Virus record (IMG/VR): IMGVR_UViG_3300037041_002705
Span: 32,001-96,000 of that record
Direction: 5' to 3' (one strand)
Source of the DNA: a virus
Length of the DNA: 64,000 nucleotides
Shown here one piece after another: positions 16,508-50,738 of the stretch. How positions within the stretch are numbered: the stretch's first letter is position 1; each line of letters begins with the position of its first letter. The position numbers were made by a program, and so were the translations under genes. Under the pieces are notes generated by a model. It was not told the origin of the DNA and searched no databases. It saw only the letters and a list, made by a program, of their open reading frames with translations.

Positions 16508-16996
16508 ATGCAAAACGATAGAAAGATAAAGAAGATAGAAGTCTTCACTGATTTTGTCTCTGAGATCTCACAGCTTTCAGTTTCACAGACCCTAAAGGTA
16601 GGTGCAATGGCTGTTAAGATAGACTTCTCAAAGATAGGAAGCTTTGGTTACAATGGTTCCTATACTGGTGCAAGTATAAATCCTGGAACAGGAGGCGAAG
16701 AAGAATCGCTTACATCTGGTCATTCTGGGTTTGTGCACGCGGAGATGAACCTTGTTGCAAAGTTCCATGAAATGGACCCCGAGAACTACATAGTTCTCTT
16801 GACACATTCACCGTGTGACATTTGTATGAAACTTATTATCAATTCTGGATTCAGATACGTATTTTGGAAGAAAGAATACAGAATGACCGATCACCTATCC
16901 ATTCTTGGAGATGTTGGTGTGGTGTATGGCGACTTTGAAGAACTAAAAAACAACTATGAAACAATCTTAGGGGACTATCTTGAAAAGAAAAAGTAA
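16508..16996 (+). CDS. dCMP deaminase
   Basis: KVGA, GYNG, HAEMN, SPCDIC zinc motifs. Confidence 0.9.
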   Translation: MQNDRKIKKIEVFTDFVSEISQLSVSQTLKVGAMAVKIDFSKIGSFGYNGSYTGASINPGTGGEEESLTSGHSGFVHAEMNLVAKFHEMDPENYIVLLTHSPCDICMKLIINSGFRYVFWKKEYRMTDHLSILGDVGVVYGDFEELKNNYETILGDYLEKKK

Positions 16997-17642
16997 TAAC
17001 CTGCAAGAGCTTGGAGAAATATTCTTCAATCTTAAAACGGAGGAGAGCTTCACTGATGTTTACCATGTTCTCGCTCCAAGGCTAAGAAGGTTTGTATCTG
17101 GGTATCTAAAGGCACCCCAGTTCACGCAGGATGACATAGATGACTGTGTATCAAACTGCATGACAAAGATATACCTAAACATCCATCAGTATAACAGCTA
17201 CTGGAACTTTTCAACGTGGTCTTACACAATAGCAAAGAATGAGGCGCTGAAAAAGATAGGTCGTGCAAAGAAGCTTAAAGAGGCTCCTATGTTGACCTTG
17301 GACAGATGGGGAGGCCCAGGTGATACAAAATCAATAGGGGAATGGGATGTTTCAAAGATACTCAAAGAGTGCATCGATGACTACATCTATAATCCAAACT
17401 ATGAGAACATAGACTTTGATCACTCAGACAACATAACAAAGGTCATACTTGAGGAGATAAAAAATCTCAACCCAAAGTATAAAGAGATTCTCTGGGATCG
17501 TGAAGTAAATGAAATGTCATACATTGATCTTGCAAAGAAATACGATCTCAACCTAAACACTCTGAAGGTTTACATCCATAAAGGAAGAAAGATCCTTCAA
17601 AAAAGGTTAAAGAAGGTCTATGAAGAATGGAAGAATTCGTAA
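16980..17642 (+). CDS. RNA polymerase sigma-70 (ECF-type) factor
   Basis: Region 2 FSTWSYTIAKN; region 4 MSYIDLAKKYDLNLNTLKVYIHKGRKIL. Confidence 0.85.
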   Translation: MKRKSNNLQELGEIFFNLKTEESFTDVYHVLAPRLRRFVSGYLKAPQFTQDDIDDCVSNCMTKIYLNIHQYNSYWNFSTWSYTIAKNEALKKIGRAKKLKEAPMLTLDRWGGPGDTKSIGEWDVSKILKECIDDYIYNPNYENIDFDHSDNITKVILEEIKNLNPKYKEILWDREVNEMSYIDLAKKYDLNLNTLKVYIHKGRKILQKRLKKVYEEWKNS

Positions 17643-31677: not shown

Positions 31678-32202
31678 ATGGCAGTTCAAGAACCATTATA
31701 TTGGGTGAATGGGGTTCCAGTGTATCCCAACCAAGTTTCCTATGTGACTCAACAGGTTGATGATACTCCTGATACCATAGATGTAACTGGGGATCTTCTT
31801 ATAAACTCCTTGACTTTTGATAATCCTCTAGACGTAGAGATAAAGAGCGGCCTTCCTCCTTATGAGGTAGCAACAAGTGGCACGTCCTACATATCACTTA
31901 CTGCAGACCAAGAGGTTACGGTCATATACAATGTTGATAACTTTGAAATAACATTTGACATTGCGCAGCCTCCTGCAAAACTTCTGCTTGTCATGTTTTC
32001 TTCTGGAATAATAGGAGGGGGTCTTAAGATAGTTGCAAACCAACTTCTTGGGGCAGGAACAGGATCCATACTTCTGAAAGATGATGATGACATTATAGTT
32101 GATCCAACCGATGTAAATGGATACAACAGAGCATCATTGCTTTTTGTCTCTGACGGTCTAAATTGGATAGAGCTAAGTAGATTTTTGTATACAGCACAAT
32201 GA
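31678..32202 (+). CDS. Small fibre-associated protein
   Basis: C-terminal LLFVSDGLNWIELSR trimeric-tip-type motif. Confidence 0.55.
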   Translation: MAVQEPLYWVNGVPVYPNQVSYVTQQVDDTPDTIDVTGDLLINSLTFDNPLDVEIKSGLPPYEVATSGTSYISLTADQEVTVIYNVDNFEITFDIAQPPAKLLLVMFSSGIIGGGLKIVANQLLGAGTGSILLKDDDDIIVDPTDVNGYNRASLLFVSDGLNWIELSRFLYTAQ

Positions 32203-44433: not shown

Positions 44434-44464
44434 AACCCCTCTGGTTCTCCAGAGGGGTTTTTTT
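44434..44464 (+). terminator. Intrinsic terminator after capsid gene
   Basis: aacccctctgg / ccagaggggtt + T-tract. Confidence 0.9.
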
Positions 44465-45082: not shown

Positions 45083-45394
45083 TTATTCAAAAAATCTATC
45101 TAGGTCACCTTCGGTGTCAATAGAATTGAGTGATCTTCTCAGATTCCTCTTCTCGTAGTCCATCTCCTTTAGGATTTCGTCTCTTTCCTTTAGGAACCTT
45201 TCTACCTTCTGTTCTATCTGCTTCCTCTCCTTGCTTTCGATCTCGTGTTTACCGGCCTTATCAAAGAGTTCAATCACACTTCTCTGGATCTCCTGAAGCT
45301 CAAGCTCAAGCTTATGGACCTTGTTAAGCTCCTTAAGTGCCTTGTACCCCTCATTTGATTCATTTATGCTCTTGATCTCTAAAAAGGTTTTCAC
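45083..45394 (-). CDS. Small coiled-coil protein, putative internal head protein
   Basis: MKTFLEIKSINES N-terminus; late motif upstream. Confidence 0.6.
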   Translation of the reverse strand: MKTFLEIKSINESNEGYKALKELNKVHKLELELQEIQRSVIELFDKAGKHEIESKERKQIEQKVERFLKERDEILKEMDYEKRNLRRSLNSIDTEGDLDRFFE

Positions 45395-45408
45395 AAAATA
45401 GAGTTTTT

Positions 45409-45417
45409 CTATATATT
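45409..45417 (-). promoter_or_regulatory. Putative late promoter AATATATAG (minus strand)
   Basis: In the 29-nt divergent intergenic gap. Confidence 0.55.
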
Positions 45418-45423
45418 AGGCAT

Positions 45424-45855
45424 ATGAAAAAAACCTTTCGAGCCCCGGCAAGCCCATTCATGTACCGCCAGGAGGTCTACCAGGATGATCCCTGGAAGAT
45501 GCTATTGATATGCATGATGCTCAACCAGACCTGCTACAAACAGGTTGATAAGGTAAGGGATGCATTCTTTGATAGGTTTCCTACGCCGGAGGACCTGCTC
45601 GCTGCAACCGATGATGAGATCATACAAATAATACGCCCTCTTGGGTTCTACAACAGAAGAGCCAAACAATGGAAGAAGTTTTCAAAGGAGTGGCTGTCTT
45701 GGGATGGGTCCAATGTCACAGATCTTTCTGGCGTTGGAAAGTATGCGTCAGACTCCTGGAAGATATTTCAAGAAGGGGTGTACTCCATAACTGTTGAGGA
45801 TAAGGAGCTGAAGAAATACCTTCAGTGGATAAATGAAAGTGGATACAACAAATAA
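45424..45855 (+). CDS. Stand-alone MBD4-like HhH DNA glycosylase
   Basis: SPF..QE...DPWK....LNQT, PLGFYNRRA, GVGKYASDSWKIF, EDKELKKY, colinear with the MBD4 catalytic domain as recalled. Confidence 0.85.
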   Translation: MKKTFRAPASPFMYRQEVYQDDPWKMLLICMMLNQTCYKQVDKVRDAFFDRFPTPEDLLAATDDEIIQIIRPLGFYNRRAKQWKKFSKEWLSWDGSNVTDLSGVGKYASDSWKIFQEGVYSITVEDKELKKYLQWINESGYNK

Positions 45856-45885
45856 CAATGCTAAAACAATGGAGATAGAACAGGC

Positions 45886-46152
45886 ATGAGCATACTATCA
45901 GAAGCAGATGGAATAGTAAACAACAGGTCTGAAGAAGCAGATCGCCAGTACGGCCCATTCAGCGAAGGCATGGAAAGGGCTGCCATGATATTCAATGGAA
46001 TGACTGGTCTTGATCTTGGAGCAGAACACATGTTCAAGGCACTTGTTGCCCTAAAGCTTTCAAGAGAAAGCTACAGGCACAAGAGGGACAACCTTCTTGA
46101 CGCTGTTGCATACATACAGGGCCTTGAGAACTACATAAATGAGAGGTCGTAA
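45886..46152 (+). CDS. DUF6378-like small all-alpha protein
   Basis: ILSEADGIV..R..QYG.F; LKLSRE..HKRDNLLDAVAY. Confidence 0.7.
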   Translation: MSILSEADGIVNNRSEEADRQYGPFSEGMERAAMIFNGMTGLDLGAEHMFKALVALKLSRESYRHKRDNLLDAVAYIQGLENYINERS

Positions 46153-47231
46153 TGGCGTTGGCGATATATGACATCCTAAGCAACCTACGAGGAAAAAGGA
46201 TTGCAATTGATGATGTCGTAACAACATATAGCCCAAAGAAGGAATCTCATAAGTCTTCTTGGCCATATCTTCTCAGTTCACAACTAAGAAGCGTCGGACT
46301 GATGTCGGATGTTCTGGCAAAGAATGATGACATCAACAGGTATGATGTTTGGTTGATATCGCTTCCAATGGAGTTCCAAGGAACTTTCAACCTCTTTGGC
46401 GGCGCAAATGAAGAGACTGCTTTGAGGATAAAGAGGCTATCCCAGTTCAAGGGTCAGATCTACATACTCAATCAGGACATGCCAGACATCGGAGCCTTTG
46501 TAAATTCAAGGATGAATGCTGCATGCGATGAATGGAAGCAGCTCGATCCAAGCCTCTATACAGATATATCAAACAGAATAGAGAGGGTCGATCTCACACT
46601 CGACAGCGATACATTCATATATGGCGACAGCCATTCTGTATCGGTCTATGAGCCAGGTGCAAACATAAGCAGGAACGACGGTCAGACGCTCCATGGATTC
46701 CTTAAGAAGAAGGATTCCTTTTTGTATCCTCCTGGAACAAAGAGGGTTGTTCTTTATATGGGAAACATTGATGTGCGGCACCATATCTTTCGTCAGGAAG
46801 ATCCCATGGGCTCTCTTCGTGATCTTACAAAGAGGTATGTTGAGTTTGCAAAGGAGCTGAAGGATGTCCATGGCATGGAGTATGTTGGCCTCGTTGACCT
46901 GCTTCCTGTTGAGCACGAGGGAAGAAAGATACCAAAGACCGGTTGGTACAAGGGAACTCCATTCTTTGGAACAAGGCAACAGAGGGCAGATGCGGTCAAG
47001 GAATTCAATAAGCTCCTCAACGAGCTTTCTTATGACTATGACTACGATGTCATCTCTTGGCCAAAGGACTGGTATGTATTGGACCCGGACAAGTATGCCG
47101 CACAATACATGGAAAGGCCAGGATCCGTTCATCTTTCAAGATCTGCATACCAGTATGACTTTGAGACCGGTATAAAGAACAAAAAGATGAGGACATCCGT
47201 CCTATTTTTTGATATAACTGGGAGCGTTTAA
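46152..47231 (+). CDS. Putative DNA-modifying enzyme: BGT-like N-domain + SGNH-type C-domain
   Basis: KRIAI..RYDVWLI..FNLFGG..FKGQIYILNQD; GDSHS, MGNIDVRHH, SVHLS. Confidence 0.55.
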   Translation: MALAIYDILSNLRGKRIAIDDVVTTYSPKKESHKSSWPYLLSSQLRSVGLMSDVLAKNDDINRYDVWLISLPMEFQGTFNLFGGANEETALRIKRLSQFKGQIYILNQDMPDIGAFVNSRMNAACDEWKQLDPSLYTDISNRIERVDLTLDSDTFIYGDSHSVSVYEPGANISRNDGQTLHGFLKKKDSFLYPPGTKRVVLYMGNIDVRHHIFRQEDPMGSLRDLTKRYVEFAKELKDVHGMEYVGLVDLLPVEHEGRKIPKTGWYKGTPFFGTRQQRADAVKEFNKLLNELSYDYDYDVISWPKDWYVLDPDKYAAQYMERPGSVHLSRSAYQYDFETGIKNKKMRTSVLFFDITGSV

Positions 47232-47248
47232 CAGTGTATAAAGAATCT

Positions 47249-48094
47249 ATGACGAAGACCATAAACAGTGAAGTCCTTTCCCTTCTATCAAAGATGGAAA
47301 GGGAAGATTCGCCAAGAGGGCTCAAGGTTGTTGAAGAATATCTGACGACCCTTGAGTTCAATCCTCTCTATCCAATGATGAACTTTGAAAACAAGGCATT
47401 CAATTGGAAGTACTTTGTAGGAGAGCTATGGTGGTACCTTACACAAGAGACCACGATTGACAAGATCAATAACTTCTCTAGCTTCTGGAAGACCCTTACC
47501 GTTGATGAGAGGATCAACTCAAACTATGGGTATGTGATGTTGTCAAGGCAACACAATCAATTCAAGTGGGCGCTTGATGCCCTTGTAAGAGATAAGTCAA
47601 CGAGACAGGCCATAATGGTGTTCAACACGCCGGCATACCAAAAGGAAGGTGTCAAGGACTTTGTATGTACAATGTATGTCAATTTCTGGATAAGAGACAA
47701 CAAGTTGAACATGAAGGTCCAGATGAGATCCAATGACATATTCTATGGCCTTCAGTACGATGCACCGTTCTTCTCGGTCGTGTATCAATCGATGTACCTT
47801 GAGCTGATCAAGAAGTATGAGGATCTAGAGATAGGAACCTATTACCACTGCTCAGATAACTCACACTACTACGAAAGACACTTTCCTCTTGTTGAGAAGC
47901 TTAAGCAAGAACAGCCAAACCCAGAAAGAGAGATTGAAATGAGGATCACACGACCTGTGTTTGATTCCTCTGAATCAGGAATTAGTAAGAATGCCATGGA
48001 GTTTGTTGATTACATGGAACAGATCCATGACTTCTCGATCTTTAACACATATGATTACATAGAAATATTTCACAAATTTTTTGTAGAGGAATAA
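47249..48094 (+). CDS. Thymidylate-synthase-family enzyme, dCMP hydroxymethylase (T4 gp42)-like
   Basis: INSNYG, RQA, DFVCT, MRSNDIFYGLQYD (Asp at the specificity site), HYYERH. Confidence 0.8.
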   Translation: MTKTINSEVLSLLSKMEREDSPRGLKVVEEYLTTLEFNPLYPMMNFENKAFNWKYFVGELWWYLTQETTIDKINNFSSFWKTLTVDERINSNYGYVMLSRQHNQFKWALDALVRDKSTRQAIMVFNTPAYQKEGVKDFVCTMYVNFWIRDNKLNMKVQMRSNDIFYGLQYDAPFFSVVYQSMYLELIKKYEDLEIGTYYHCSDNSHYYERHFPLVEKLKQEQPNPEREIEMRITRPVFDSSESGISKNAMEFVDYMEQIHDFSIFNTYDYIEIFHKFFVEE

Positions 48095-48342
48095 TGGAAG
48101 CGACAGAACAAACAACAGAAACTGCGCAGGAGCGCCAACAAACGCCTGCTTATGTCATCGATGATCCAGCAAAGGCGATCAATGTTCTTGTGAATGCAGC
48201 AGAACATGCACAGCGTCTTGGTGCTTACAGCATGCAAGAAGCAAAGATCATCTATGATGCAATTGTATTCTTCAGGCCTGATAGGTCAGTTGAAGCAGTA
48301 AATGCTGCAGCGGCCCAAGAGGAGCAGCAACAGCAGGCTTAA
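48094..48342 (+). CDS. Small hypothetical protein
   Basis: GAGGA upstream; AINVLVNAAEHAQRLGAYSMQEA. Confidence 0.65.
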   Translation: MEATEQTTETAQERQQTPAYVIDDPAKAINVLVNAAEHAQRLGAYSMQEAKIIYDAIVFFRPDRSVEAVNAAAAQEEQQQQA

Positions 48343-48344
48343 CA

Positions 48345-49064
48345 ATGAAAAGGTGCCTTGTCATAGCGACCGTTGCTGAGGGCGGATTCTACAACGATCT
48401 TCCTTTGGGGTCGGATGCTGAGGCATCACGCACTTTTGATCTCATAAAGATAAACTTCAATCCTGTTGGGTTTTCTAGGGAATCCATAAACCATAGCCAT
48501 CAACCATGGTACCAAGAAGATGTAGGATTCAAACACCACATCTACAAGAGGCTGATAGAAAAACTGAATCTTCTTGATAGATATGACTGGATCTGGATGC
48601 CTGACTACGATGTCCATCTTGAACAGTCAGAGATTGAGAGGATGTTTAAGATCGCACAGGAATACAACCTGAACATCTGTCAGCCTTCTCTTACGCATGA
48701 TAGCTACCATAGCTTTCCTTTTGTACTGAACGATCCAACAAAGTTCATGAGGTACACAAACTACGTTGAGATCATGTGCCCGCTGTTCAAGACAGAAGCG
48801 CTGAAGAAGGTCCTTTGGACATTTACCATCACACACTCTGGTTGGGCACAGGATTTTCTTTGGGCAAGGGATCTCAACTATGAAAGGCTTGCAATCATTG
48901 ATGATGTACAGGCAAAACATGTCAAACCAGTTGAGAGCCAATATTGGCAGCTTCCAAATGGATTAAATGCTGATCAGGAGCTTGACATGGCAATAAAATT
49001 GTTTGGTCTTCAAAAGGAAATGTTCTGGCCTAAAGCAATAGGAGGAATAGATCGATGGACATAA
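48345..49064 (+). CDS. DUF707-like (GT-A) putative glycosyltransferase
   Basis: YDWIWMPDYDV, ICQPSL, TNYVEIMCPLF, GWAQDFLW, AIIDD...H. Confidence 0.75.
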   Translation: MKRCLVIATVAEGGFYNDLPLGSDAEASRTFDLIKINFNPVGFSRESINHSHQPWYQEDVGFKHHIYKRLIEKLNLLDRYDWIWMPDYDVHLEQSEIERMFKIAQEYNLNICQPSLTHDSYHSFPFVLNDPTKFMRYTNYVEIMCPLFKTEALKKVLWTFTITHSGWAQDFLWARDLNYERLAIIDDVQAKHVKPVESQYWQLPNGLNADQELDMAIKLFGLQKEMFWPKAIGGIDRWT

Positions 49065-49366
49065 ACTACAACATGGAGGATGACCTTGATTGGACGAATG
49101 CAGAGGTCATAGAACTGCACCCAAAGGGATGGAAGCCGGTGAGTGTCAGTTTCATAGATTCATACCCCTTTGTTTTTTGGAGGCTGAACAACATCCAAAA
49201 GAACTTTAGATCAAACTCAGATCTTGTTTCAAGGAAAGGCGTCAATGAATTCTTTTCTGATAGTCTTGCTTCCATGAAGCTTCTTGTTATGCATTCATTG
49301 GATGGTATGCCAGAAGAAAGAAAGAAATTTTACAAAGAAAATATATTGGAGCTCTTTGATGAATAA
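49055..49366 (+). CDS. Hypothetical protein
   Basis: Coupled ORF, GGAGG upstream. Confidence 0.55.
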   Translation: MDINYNMEDDLDWTNAEVIELHPKGWKPVSVSFIDSYPFVFWRLNNIQKNFRSNSDLVSRKGVNEFFSDSLASMKLLVMHSLDGMPEERKKFYKENILELFDE

Positions 49367-49958
49367 TCAATACCTACAATGGCTCTCAGGTCCAAAAAGG
49401 GGAGAAGTAGAGACTGCTGAGATGATGCAGGATGGACAGACGTTTGAGGACGTTGTCATCGTTTCAGGCGGAGGAAAAATCCCAATGTCAAAGATAGGAA
49501 AGGACTTCATAATACTTCCAGCTGCAAATGCAGCATTGAGTCAGATAGACCTCGATGTGATGTATCCGAAGCCAAACCCAAAGCAGAACAGAAGGGCTGA
49601 CCAAAAGCAAAGACGGCAGGAGGCGCCTGCTGTGCAGACTGACCATGTAAGCATACTTGGGTTTGATCCTTCCAACGATTCCCCTTCTGAGCCTCGCGTC
49701 CAGGAGAGACAAAGACCTAAGAAGCATTCTAGCTTTGCCACAGACCTTTTAACACGGGCAAAAAAGAATGATACAAAGATAACACTCGAACTACAGGTAG
49801 AAATGCCATCATCAGCATTCTTCTCGATGATGAATGAGACTTTTGAGGAATCAACGGTAAATGAAGTGATAGATATAATCATTGACTCAATTGACCAGGA
49901 AGCACTAAGAAATTCAATGAAGCAAAGCATAATCAAATTTTATGGAGGACAGAAGTGA
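49359..49958 (+). CDS. Hypothetical protein
   Basis: Likely start ATG 49359 (MNNQYLQW). Confidence 0.6.
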   Translation: MNNQYLQWLSGPKRGEVETAEMMQDGQTFEDVVIVSGGGKIPMSKIGKDFIILPAANAALSQIDLDVMYPKPNPKQNRRADQKQRRQEAPAVQTDHVSILGFDPSNDSPSEPRVQERQRPKKHSSFATDLLTRAKKNDTKITLELQVEMPSSAFFSMMNETFEESTVNEVIDIIIDSIDQEALRNSMKQSIIKFYGGQK

Positions 49959-50356
49959 CAGAAGACAACCAGCAAAATGAACAGCAATCAGAAGAAGTAA
50001 ACACACAGGATGCCCCTGAGCTTAATGATGGATTCGGTGCAATACCAAACATTACGTTCAACAGGAAGTTCAGACGTGCAATGCTCAAGCAGAGCGGATA
50101 CGTTAAGCTGAAGAACAAGCTTGGATACAAGGACTGGTTTGAGAATGTGAAGAACAATATCCAAAACGGAAAGCAACTTCATGCGACAAACACCGAAGAT
50201 TTCATACGTCGTGCAAAAGAGCGAATGGAGAAATCAAACGAATCTCTCGCTGGGTTCCTTCTTGAAAAGGGATATACAGAAGAACAGGCAGGAGAAGTTA
50301 TAGAGAGGAACATGGAGATCCATGAAAGGATTTCTATGAAAAAGATAAAGCCATGA
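49955..50356 (+). CDS. Hypothetical protein
   Basis: GTG start with GGAGG upstream; NRKFRRAMLKQ. Confidence 0.6.
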   Translation: MTEDNQQNEQQSEEVNTQDAPELNDGFGAIPNITFNRKFRRAMLKQSGYVKLKNKLGYKDWFENVKNNIQNGKQLHATNTEDFIRRAKERMEKSNESLAGFLLEKGYTEEQAGEVIERNMEIHERISMKKIKP

Positions 50357-50712
50357 ATTTTGTCTTTTCAAGAGAGAAGGTAAACCTTCCAAAGTATGCA
50401 TCCGGTTCGAAGCCATATGTCATTGATGTCAATAAGCTTCTTCTCAGGATAAAGAACAGAGATACCGATGGGATGGTCAATACATCAATATACCTGATGA
50501 ACCTTGTTCTTCAGGAAGAGTTTGAGTTTGCCATAAAGAAGAGGAAGACCTGCATATACTACATAAACCCTTCCATTTCCCTGGATACGATAAAGAACAT
50601 AAAGAAGGCTCTGCCTTCCATGGATATAACCATAAAGAAGTACTTCTTGGTCGATGACGACTCTCTAAAAAAGCTACACAAACACGTTGATCAAGTGATC
50701 AAACCAAGATAA
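50353..50712 (+). CDS. Hypothetical protein
   Basis: Coupled ORF ending at a terminator. Confidence 0.55.
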   Translation: MNFVFSREKVNLPKYASGSKPYVIDVNKLLLRIKNRDTDGMVNTSIYLMNLVLQEEFEFAIKKRKTCIYYINPSISLDTIKNIKKALPSMDITIKKYFLVDDDSLKKLHKHVDQVIKPR

Positions 50713-50738
50713 AGGCGCATATGCGCCTTTTCTTTTTT
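50711..50738 (+). terminator. Intrinsic terminator (perfect 20-bp palindrome + T-tract)
   Basis: aaaggcgcatatgcgccttt followed by tctttttt. Confidence 0.8.

Follow-up and report, generated by a model that had tools for sequence, protein, structure and literature searches.

A candidate cassette for hydroxymethylcytosine hypermodification in a large uncultured phage, with an SGNH-fold enzyme on a glucosyltransferase-like N-terminal domain

Whether restriction, CRISPR or type IV defence succeeds against a phage is decided by the hypermodifications of its DNA, whose enzymes also serve as epigenomic tools. To our knowledge, the known tailoring of 5-hydroxymethylcytosine (hmC) consists of glycosylation and carbamoylation, and leaving-group chemistry, by a kinase together with an amino-acid:DNA transferase, is known for thymine only. 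A viral stretch of 64,000 nucleotides (the window; positions 32,001 to 96,000 of IMG/VR record IMGVR_UViG_3300037041_002705) raises the question of what else may be done to hmC: it carries, side by side, genes for an MBD4-like glycosylase, a DUF6378 protein, a protein here called X359 and a thymidylate synthase (TS) homolog. A preliminary description read these as a pathway that makes hmC, acylates rather than glycosylates it, and repairs its deamination products. A role of the longer unit 45424-50712 of this large uncultured phage as an hmC-based DNA hypermodification cassette is well supported by the analysis given here; the best explanation of its parts, in which we place somewhat better than even confidence, adds an acyl-enzyme step by X359 on hmC and repair by the glycosylase.

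ORF coordinates and the spacing between genes (30 nt, -1 nt and 2 nt) confirm the array of four co-oriented plus-strand genes at 45424-48094 first described, but the array is longer (Table 1): p82, a DUF707 protein, p103 and three further ORFs follow, and downstream of the TS homolog there is no strong terminator before 50711-50730. The whole unit comprises roughly ten genes with terminators at both bounds. Promoter-like sites are not enriched in the region (13, against 11.8 in shuffles), a Pfam search of the three last ORFs returned no family above threshold, and a DNA-level similarity search against 50,697 phage records returned nothing.

Table 1. Features of the gene unit, with a nucleotide-pool gene located elsewhere in the window
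Feature	Coordinates	Strand	Remarks
dCMP deaminase, pyrimidine pool enzyme	16508..16996	+	Pfam dCMP_cyt_deam_1 4.6e-11
Promoter-like site TTCACA-16-TATATT, just 5' of first gene	45390..45417	+	consensus match only, 10/12
MBD4-type HhH-GPD DNA glycosylase, glycosylase domain only	45424..45855	+	143 aa
DUF6378 protein	45886..46152	+	88 aa; conserved X359 partner
X359, BGT-N-like/SGNH fusion	46152..47231	+	359 aa
gp42-type dCMP hydroxymethylase (5hmdCMP synthase) homolog (TS homolog)	47234..48094	+	286 aa, GTG start
p82, small protein	48094..48342	+	no Pfam, PHROG or NCBIfam match
DUF707 protein, putative GT-A-like glycosyltransferase	48345..49064	+	Pfam DUF707 5e-6
p103	49055..49366	+	co-travels with DUF707
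Three further ORFs	49284-49958 (start uncertain), 49955-50356, 50353-50712	+	ORF calls, ahead of terminator
Terminator-like hairpin, bidirectional, closes unit	50711..50730	.	8-bp stem, 5 GC pairs, T-run on both strands

The TS homolog belongs to the thymidylate synthase family (Pfam Thymidylat_synt, PF00303, 6.9e-21, 75 bits), and among PDB entries it matches T4 dCMP hydroxymethylase best (4.5e-19, against 6e-10 for ThyA). Alignment by MAFFT with E. coli ThyA and T4 gp42 gives L143D, C146, H147T, a retained D169 and N177D at five diagnostic positions; the columns of C146 (the catalytic Cys) and N177D are cross-marked in PDB alignments by the mutant chains 6l18 and 6a9a. Asp at 177 is the cytosine-type residue, not that of a dUMP-specific hydroxymethylase. 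According to PMC13326640, an acidic residue at 143 with Asp169 distinguishes 5hmdCMP synthases and Asn169 marks 5hodCMP synthases; the TS homolog has Asp at both positions. A 5-hydroxycytosine (5hoC) reading was rejected on the retained Asp169, the Asn169 signature being seen only in a distant PTm5 relative. The protein thus has every residue by which T4-type 5hmdCMP synthases can be told apart from both thymidylate synthases and 5-hydroxy-dCMP synthases, and since the genome also encodes a separate ThyX, it is read as a dCMP hydroxymethylase-type enzyme. The original assignment as a dCMP-type homolog is borne out, and with it the making step: judged by its sequence, the enzyme very probably produces the T4-type hmC precursor.

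Other pool genes bear on this reading. A dUTPase-family gene is present elsewhere in the genome and, with ThyX and the dCMP deaminase, counts in its favour. Neither a T4 gp1-like dNMP kinase nor a gp56-like dCTPase was found in the phage's own record (42% complete) or in an 88%-complete syntenic relative, G002, so that full replacement of cytosine is not supported by gene content. The stated absence of a T4-type glucosyltransferase holds for a T4 BGT query, which by phmmer (E<=10) matched no ORF anywhere in the record's 133,673 bp.

A candidate for the subsequent step is X359, whose AF2 model (pLDDT 89) comprises an N-terminal BGT-N-like, Rossmann-type domain (residues ~1-150) and an SGNH-fold catalytic domain (~151-350). 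The C-terminal half is recognized as SGNH by Foldseek (prob 1.0, 70 matches at E<=0.001) and by VIA (Z 13.3 to 2hsj, rmsd 4.0, 179 aligned); the SGNH-fold O-acetyltransferases PatB and OatA are among its structural matches (7tjb, Z 11.0; 6vjp, Z 10.0), and its Pfam match to Lipase_GDSL (9e-4, 19.8 bits) lies under the 23.6 cut-off. GDSH (158-161), GNID (204-207), RxH and H327 are invariant in all 184 family members. The predicted catalytic set is Ser160, Asn205 and His327, with Ser, Asn and His assigned to blocks I, III and V by motif, without superposition; no Asp stands three residues ahead of His327 as in DxxH, the segment reading E321-x-P-x-S-V-H327 with position 324 variable.

For the N-terminal half folded alone, the T4 BGT N-domain ranks first of 48,161 chains, at a modest Z of 7.0 (rmsd 3.2, 108 aligned, 20% identity) with the next unrelated row at 6.4. 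BGT entries are among the top Foldseek rows (highest TMq 0.55, E 4e-3), and hhalign of X359 against T4 BGT gives a probability of 63% (E 6.9e-5). Sequence searches returned no Pfam hit to the BGT family PF09198 and no PDB match for X359, and only chance-level PDB rows (E >= 0.2) for the N-domain profile. The C-terminal UDP-glucose-binding Rossmann domain of BGT is absent, residues 151-350 being SGNH fold. Asp100, which we take to be the catalytic residue of T4 BGT (the PDB title of 1nzd names a D100A mutant), aligns with X359 residue 109, where conservation is lacking: of the 184 members, 98 have E, 50 have D, 15 have P and 10 have Q. At the level of predicted folds, the BGT-N/SGNH fusion named in the preliminary description is supported, strongly in score for the SGNH half and modestly for the other. 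The literature search turned up no paper that connects SGNH with hmC, with BGT or with phage DNA.

Relatives of X359 are encoded in at least 572 IMG/VR stretches (677 proteins match at E<=0.001), and homologs occur in 43 phage records, 38 of them Aeromonas T4-like phages. Among cultured T4-like phages the protein is restricted to the gene-42-positive, glucosyltransferase-negative Aeromonas group, and PMC2993671 reports Aeromonas T4-like phages with genes 42 and 56 and without a glucosyltransferase. Two of these phages, Aeromonas phages 31 and 44RR, which have gene 42 and lack a glucosyltransferase, encode X359 as a fusion with a PF18723-like ("5-hmdU DNA kinase helical") protein, the fusion domain of phage 31 matching stand-alone PF18723-like neighbours at 5e-93 by phmmer; elsewhere X359 is adjacent to PF18723 proteins, and in many loci it shares operons with a gp56-like dCTPase (hhalign 99.4%) and PolB. 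This context, together with the gene-42-positive Aeromonas phages that carry the family, supports the suggestion of a post-replicative enzyme acting on hmC. The PF18723-like proteins near X359 have no P-loop. Further neighbours differ by lineage and include an SSF symporter, GLF, a PLP enzyme accompanied by two unknowns, and an INO1-like synthase together with FkbM and PF18723. Two genes upstream in Aeromonas phage 25 lies a UDP-galactopyranose mutase. Neighbour clusters cl8 and cl9 matched nothing in the PDB by sequence and cl9 members nothing credible in Pfam; hhalign gave no relation above 50% probability among neighbour clusters, and none above 20% between these and the window's uncharacterised proteins.

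Co-occurrence, proposed earlier as a check on the operon, is close for DUF6378 and X359 and sparse for the other two genes. Of 80 viral IMG/VR loci, 74 have DUF6378 directly upstream of X359 (60-85% identity); a TS homolog falls inside the fetched locus in only 7/80, and an MBD4-like gene accompanies X359 in only 7/80. Searches of X359-bearing records found gp42-signature TS homologs in 6 of 18, the phage's own counted, with further examples in the flanks of L073 and L078; the 12 records with no gp42-type gene are all fragments, of 14-64% estimated completeness.

The constant partner offers few clues. DUF6378 (Pfam 2.3e-8) occurs in other viruses as a fusion with DUF4406; its profile gave only chance-level rows (E >= 0.2) against the PDB, tblastn against the 50,697 phage records at E<=1e-6 found none, and in the literature searched it is named in 3 papers only, all on annotation. 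Its reading as a short dCTPase was rejected for now (hhalign against the gp56-like family, <1%). Prediction of its complex with X359 scored 0.00 in two runs, made without controls, and weighs neither for nor against an interaction. The glycosylase is more readily placed: Pfam HhH-GPD at 2.3e-12 (47.7 bits against a 26.2 cut-off), with MBD4 glycosylase domains as best PDB sequences (E 3e-23 over residues 3-139), so that the label MBD4-like is correct. Identity to mammalian MBD4 catalytic domains is ~40% by eye over the whole length, and the Asp of the GKYxxDS motif, presumably the catalytic Asp of MBD4-type glycosylases, is kept in alignment to 1ngn, 4ew4 and 4dk9; unlike MBD4, the protein is phage-encoded and has no methyl-CpG-binding domain. 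From these motifs a repair role is plausible.

Downstream of the TS homolog, p82 occupies the same position in L117, L118, L120 and L122, so that in this lineage it keeps company with the TS homolog and with DUF707. The DUF707 match (26.4 bits against 24.1) spans residues 75-120 only; in the atlas it lies next to clusters of DUF707 and of a "glycosyltransferase family", and P86, D87 and D89 of a PDxD motif are invariant in 14 sequences. PMC3522684 describes DUF707 as a predicted GT-A-like glycosyltransferase family, with activity as prediction only. PDB matches to designer PPR proteins were set aside as repeat or low-complexity artefacts. A general role of DUF707 as an hmC-DNA glycosyltransferase is unsupported: 32 of 38 viral DUF707 loci, which hold distant relatives, are without TS, X359, gp56 or BGT within 8 kb.

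Taken together, the residues suggest that the gp42-type enzyme would convert dCMP to 5-hydroxymethyl-dCMP, which would then be built into phage DNA. Fold, fusion and context suggest that X359, usually with DUF6378, could bind hmC in DNA through its BGT-like N-domain, and that its SGNH domain (Ser160, Asn205, His327) would then act through an acyl-enzyme at the 5-hydroxymethyl oxygen to leave an ester on hmC. That ester might be the final mark, or a leaving group swapped for a lineage-specific group, with p82, DUF707 and p103 as the only possible next-step proteins in the present lineage; it may also be placed on another group. The MBD4-type glycosylase would remove deamination-derived hmU or U opposite G. 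The product may be a phage DNA base of a kind so far undescribed.

O-acylation as the end product is only one option, with no better odds than transient acyl activation. In favour of X359 as an O-acyltransferase, with O-acyl-hmC (for example acetoxymethyl-C) as the final, unglycosylated virion base, are the invariant SGNH set, the PatB and OatA matches and the T4 BGT homolog not found in the record, and the known O-carbamoyl hmC (PMC8670742) indicates that hmC esters are tolerated in DNA. Against it stand the constancy of X359 beside widely differing biosynthetic neighbours, which suggests that further groups are installed, a putative glycosyltransferase, DUF707, in the same operon, and the fact that no acyl-donor gene was recognised in that operon; we regard it as unlikely. 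The invariant residues fit acyl-enzyme chemistry as such; acylation in place of glycosylation goes beyond what they support.

A somewhat better, still tentative, prospect is that the ester is transient, like the phosphate in thymidine hypermodification, and that a second enzyme adds the final group. The SGNH module would then, just as tentatively, occupy the place of the P-loop kinase of known pathways. The phage 31 fusion links X359 to a family whose Pfam name is taken from the 5-hmdU DNA kinase, the PF18723-like proteins lack a P-loop, searches for PF18723 or a P-loop 5-hmdU DNA kinase gave 0 hits in the phage's own record (42% complete), G002 and G006, and variable downstream genes fit one activation serving many nucleophiles. 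Yet searches around X359 in the present lineage found neither an AADT-like nor a PF18723-like transferase, DUF707, if a nucleotide-sugar transferase, needs no activated hmC, the literature search found no enzymatic precedent for an ester leaving group on DNA, and the "kinase" label of PF18723-only proteins is itself unproven. That X359 merely adjoins the hydroxymethylase and is an esterase of something other than DNA (a small molecule, sugar nucleotide, host glycan or defence signal) we consider improbable. SGNH enzymes are mostly hydrolases, the bulk of them esterases of glycans and lipids; the N-domain is similar in fold (Z 5-6.4) to TIR, SEFIR, receiver and deoxyribosyltransferase domains as well, and both the DUF6378-DUF4406 fusions and the scarcity of adjacent TS homologs are in keeping with such a role. 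The top rank of BGT by two aligners with hhalign support, the fusion to a family tied to modified-base DNA enzymes, the consistent dCTPase and PolB neighbourhood, and cultured T4-like carriers that all belong to one gene-42-positive, glucosyltransferase-negative group argue for action on DNA.

With the T4 pathway (gp42, gp56, gp1 and alpha/beta-glucosyltransferases) the candidate hmC cassette and its genome share the gp42 signature, a dCMP deaminase and separate thymidylate synthase, and, by a modest match of the modelled fold, a putatively BGT-like N-domain on a predicted post-replicative enzyme; the phage differs in the SGNH domain that stands where BGT binds UDP-glucose, in the gp1 and gp56 homologs not found, in having ThyX as its thymidylate synthase, and in its extra DUF6378, MBD4-like and DUF707 genes. 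Thymidine hypermodification clusters (M6, ViI, PaMx11, PhiW-14, SP10), as set out in PMC8989533 and PMC11472151, combine a dUMP hydroxymethylase, P-loop 5-HMUDK, AADT/aGPT-Pplase, and PLP and other enzymes. Here too a hydroxymethylpyrimidine would be built into DNA and then tailored, and X359 relatives occur with or fused to PF18723 proteins and with PLP enzymes; the base, however, is cytosine (N177D), an SGNH enzyme is present, and no P-loop kinase or recognisable AADT was found in the phage or G002. The 5hmC carbamoyltransferase described in PMC8670742 modifies hmC of phage-derived DNA in the way proposed for X359, with an acyl-type group at the hydroxymethyl oxygen, and its product, 5-carbamoyloxymethylcytosine, tempers the earlier remark that no description of such chemistry in phage DNA was known; it is of another family, with a carbamoyl-phosphate/adenylate mechanism and neither SGNH nor BGT-like domain. 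The 5-hydroxy-dCMP synthases, with arabinosyl- or hexosyl-5hoC (RB69, DLP3, RL38JI; PMC13326640), share N177D, the acidic 143 and post-replicative decoration, but have Asn169 where the TS homolog has Asp.

An SGNH enzyme on a glucosyltransferase-type DNA-binding domain would, if true, be a new way of derivatising hmC. It is possible, though we hold it at well below even, that DUF6378/X359 is a DNA hmC O-acyl enzyme providing kinase-free activation of hmC, that it opens undescribed cytosine hypermodifications (inositol-, amino-acid- or sugar-linked in other lineages), and that it is the missing hmC-tailoring activity of Aeromonas phages 31, 44RR2.8t and 25. Cultured Aeromonas phages exist as test material for the hypothesis, and X359 is a candidate answer to a question posed in 2010 (PMC2993671): the fate of hmC in gene-42-positive, glucosyltransferase-negative relatives of T4.

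The four genes running from the MBD4-like glycosylase to the thymidylate synthase (TS) homolog had been put forward in the preliminary description as an operon that makes 5-hydroxymethylcytosine (hmC) or a related C5-modified cytosine through the TS homolog, O-acylates it through X359 and repairs its deamination products through the glycosylase. The genes and their order are present as described, but in the ORF listing the array continues unbroken into p82, the DUF707 protein, p103 (p82 and p103 being small ORFs with no named function) and three further ORFs, ending at 50712. Given this unbroken run and the strong terminator-like hairpins, the four genes only open a run of some ten genes, which lies between the capsid gene block and a downstream block of large ORFs.

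Features of the cassette and its boundaries, in window positions
Feature	Position	Strand	Remarks
Terminator-like hairpin, strong	44434-44459	+	
Terminator-like hairpin, strong	44529-44502	-	
Promoter-like site	45390-45417		ahead of glycosylase gene
MBD4-like HhH-GPD glycosylase	45424-45855	+	143 aa; ORF listing, Pfam HhH-GPD 2.3e-12
DUF6378 protein	45886-46152	+	88 aa; Pfam DUF6378 2.3e-8
X359	46152-47231	+	359 aa; Pfam Lipase_GDSL 9e-4, sub-threshold
TS homolog	47234-48094	+	286 aa; Pfam Thymidylat_synt 6.9e-21
p82	48094-48342	+	ORF listing; runs on from TS homolog
DUF707 protein	48345-49064	+	ORF listing
p103	49055-49366	+	ORF listing
Three more ORFs after p103	up to 50712	+	ORF listing
Terminator-like hairpin, strong	50711-50730	both	

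The reading of X359 as a fusion of an N-terminal domain like that of T4 beta-glucosyltransferase (BGT) with an SGNH domain stands on fold matches and conserved residues, firmly for the SGNH half and moderately for the BGT half. In an AlphaFold2 model built from 24 homologs (pLDDT 89), residues ~151-350 have a predicted SGNH fold (Foldseek prob 1.0); this half aligns with 2hsj over 179 residues (VIA Z 13.3, rmsd 4.0), and its structural match list is made up of SGNH esterases along with PatB and OatA, two O-acetyltransferases. For the N-terminal half modelled by itself (pLDDT 88.5), the T4 BGT N-domain (1c3j) ranks first among 48,161 representative chains (Z 7.0, rmsd 3.2, 108 residues aligned, 20% identity), by a small margin over the first unrelated chain (Z 6.4), and T4 alpha-glucosyltransferase stands at rank 8 (Z 5.8). 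Foldseek placed four BGT entries in the top 24 (E 4e-3), with the highest query TM-score (0.55), and hhalign of the family N-domain profile against T4 BGT gave prob 63%, E 6.9e-5 and 30% identity over 64 columns; a sequence-profile search of the PDB with the N-domain missed BGT. Invariant among 184 distinct family members are G158-D159-S160-H161, G204-N205, D207, R209, H211 and H327, together with H33 and G84 in the N-domain, whereas the position that pairs with BGT Asp100 is not conserved.

The TS homolog matches T4 dCMP hydroxymethylase (gp42) at 4.5e-19 and thymidylate synthases at 6e-10. Aligned by MAFFT with E. coli ThyA and T4 gp42, it has L143D, C146, H147T, D169 and N177D, the same five residue states as gp42 of T4 and of Aeromonas phage 31. 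In the scheme of one published account, enzymes with N177D act on cytosine, those with an acidic residue at 143 make something other than the methyl product, and D169N marks 5-hydroxy-dCMP synthases (PMC13326640); since Asp169 is retained, the window's homolog is placed with the hydroxymethylases and not with those synthases. Homologs with the gp42 signature occur in six of the 18 X359-bearing records searched (the window's own record G000, and G001, G002, G003, G006 and G014), and likewise in the flanks of two fetched loci, L073 and L078. No gp42-type homolog was found in the other 12, which count as misses yet carry little weight because all are fragments of 14-64% estimated completeness. 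Among the TS matches of the X359-bearing records no dUMP-type hydroxymethylase was seen, the remainder being ordinary ThyA. On these sequence signatures the X359 family thus appears to go with hydroxymethylcytosine, even beside neighbours that bear the "hmdU kinase" family name. Tenacibaculum phage PTm5 (L109, record positions 123342-123974) has a distant X359 homolog (25% identity) between its RNR genes; the phage's second TS homolog, read by eye from a translation with one TAA within the match, carries E143, N169 and D177, which is the signature published for 5-hydroxy-dCMP synthases.

The X359 family is large: 677 proteins match X359 at E<=0.001, and genes for relatives occur on at least 572 stretches in IMG/VR. 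Among 80 loci fetched for neighbourhood counts (tblastn), DUF6378 lies directly upstream of X359 in 74, and the TS homolog and the MBD4-like gene are each present in 7. With ~45 of its 88 positions invariant, DUF6378 is far better conserved than X359 (60-85% versus 38-54% identity across the same loci); in the literature search it turned up in just three papers, all of them phage annotations. The glycosylase is an occasional companion of X359 and no core part. It matches MBD4 catalytic domains across its whole length (E 3e-23) and retains the Asp of GKYxxDS, which we take to be the catalytic Asp of the MBD4 type; such an enzyme would fit the removal of hmU:G or U:G produced by deamination.

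Neighbour clustering with Pfam, NCBIfam and hhalign gave several operon forms. One follows the DUF6378-X359 pair with an INO1-like inositol-phosphate synthase, a small protein, an FkbM methyltransferase, a PF18723 protein, a gp56-like dCTPase and PolB; another follows it with two unknown proteins, a PLP enzyme, the same dCTPase and PolB; the form of the window, also seen in L002-L005 and L043, runs MBD4-like, DUF6378, X359, gp42-like, p82, DUF707, p103. The INO1-like inositol-3-phosphate synthase gene lies directly 3' of X359 at L009:4203-5387 and in 41 other loci (NCBIfam 3.9e-85, below cut-off; Pfam 1.1e-22), and in many uncultured phages the FkbM methyltransferase and PF18723 protein are found alongside it.

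Cultured phages offer a further view of the family, with X359 homologs in 43 of 50,697 records (38 Aeromonas T4-likes, 2 IME13 records and 3 Tenacibaculum phages). In Aeromonas phage 31 the homolog makes up the first 340 residues of a protein of 795 residues, whose C-terminal part matches stand-alone PF18723-like neighbours at 5e-93; X359 is likewise fused to a PF18723-like domain in Aeromonas phage 44RR2.8t, whereas in Aeromonas phage 25 it stands alone. DUF6378 was not found in the phage 31 genome, with the syntenic relative G002 as positive control. Two genes upstream of the phage 25 homolog lies a UDP-galactopyranose mutase gene (GLF 5e-54, L111:3764-4828), and upstream of the phage 31 fusion a sodium:solute symporter (L001:4420-5943, 7e-53) occupies the matching place. 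According to Petrov et al. (2010, PMC2993671), phages 44RR, 31 and 25 carry gene 42 and gene 56 but lack a glucosyltransferase, and whether they modify their hmC in some other way was unknown at the time. The PF18723-like proteins of X359 loci have no Walker A motif, and Serratia phage phiMAM1 gp083 (L110:2279-3469), a bona fide, strong match to the PF18723 "5-hmdU DNA kinase helical domain" (1.4e-82), has no other recognised Pfam domain; kinase activity is therefore only putative for these proteins.

The window covers bases 32001-96000 of a single viral record of 133,673 bp, which also encodes a dCMP deaminase and, outside the window, ThyX (G000 C1:436-996) and a dUTPase-family gene (2.8e-22) ahead of PolB (G000:C1:13359-17696). 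Homologs of T4 gp1 and gp56 were found neither in this record (estimated completeness 42%) nor in the 88%-complete G002. PolB is apparently split into ORFs of 460 and 821 aa. In the window, the dCMP deaminase gene is directly followed by one for a sigma-70-like factor with regions 2 and 4 (16980-17642). A large ORF (3-2045) running off the window start terminates in a C-terminal sorting domain of type IX secretion (Por_Secre_tail 3.4e-7), which points to a probable Bacteroidota host.

Among known systems the cassette comes nearest to the T4 hmC pathway, to the clusters for thymidine hypermodification, to hmC carbamoyltransferase, whose product is reported as 5-carbamoyloxymethylcytosine (PMC8670742), and to the pathways that glycosylate 5-hydroxycytosine. 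It has a make-then-tailor logic and single domains in common with them. Unlike BGT it has no sugar-nucleotide domain, a defining BGT feature, and unlike the thymidine clusters it has a cytosine-type synthase and no kinase that could be found. Our literature search found no paper joining an SGNH enzyme to hmC or phage DNA.

The genes and gene order, folds, conserved residues, fusion and co-occurrences are directly established. In the pathway that we consider most likely, the gp42-type enzyme would supply hm-dCMP, hmC would be incorporated into DNA, and X359 would dock on that DNA through its BGT-like domain; with Ser160, His327 and an oxyanion hole at Asn205 it would then move an acyl group onto or off the hydroxymethyl oxygen. 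That the resulting ester is itself the final mark, as originally proposed, seems improbable to us; that it acts as a leaving group is conceivable, if doubtful. For a second step in the window lineage the only candidates are p82, DUF707 and p103. One source describes DUF707 as a predicted GT-A-like glycosyltransferase family (PMC3522684), with which the Atlas neighbours of the protein agree; its role in the cassette is uncertain because distant viral relatives lack TS or X359 linkage in 32 of 38 loci. The constancy of X359 beside very different supply genes, together with its fusion to a PF18723-like partner in Aeromonas phages, argues that X359 may carry out a common first chemistry on hmC, which other enzymes would then finish.
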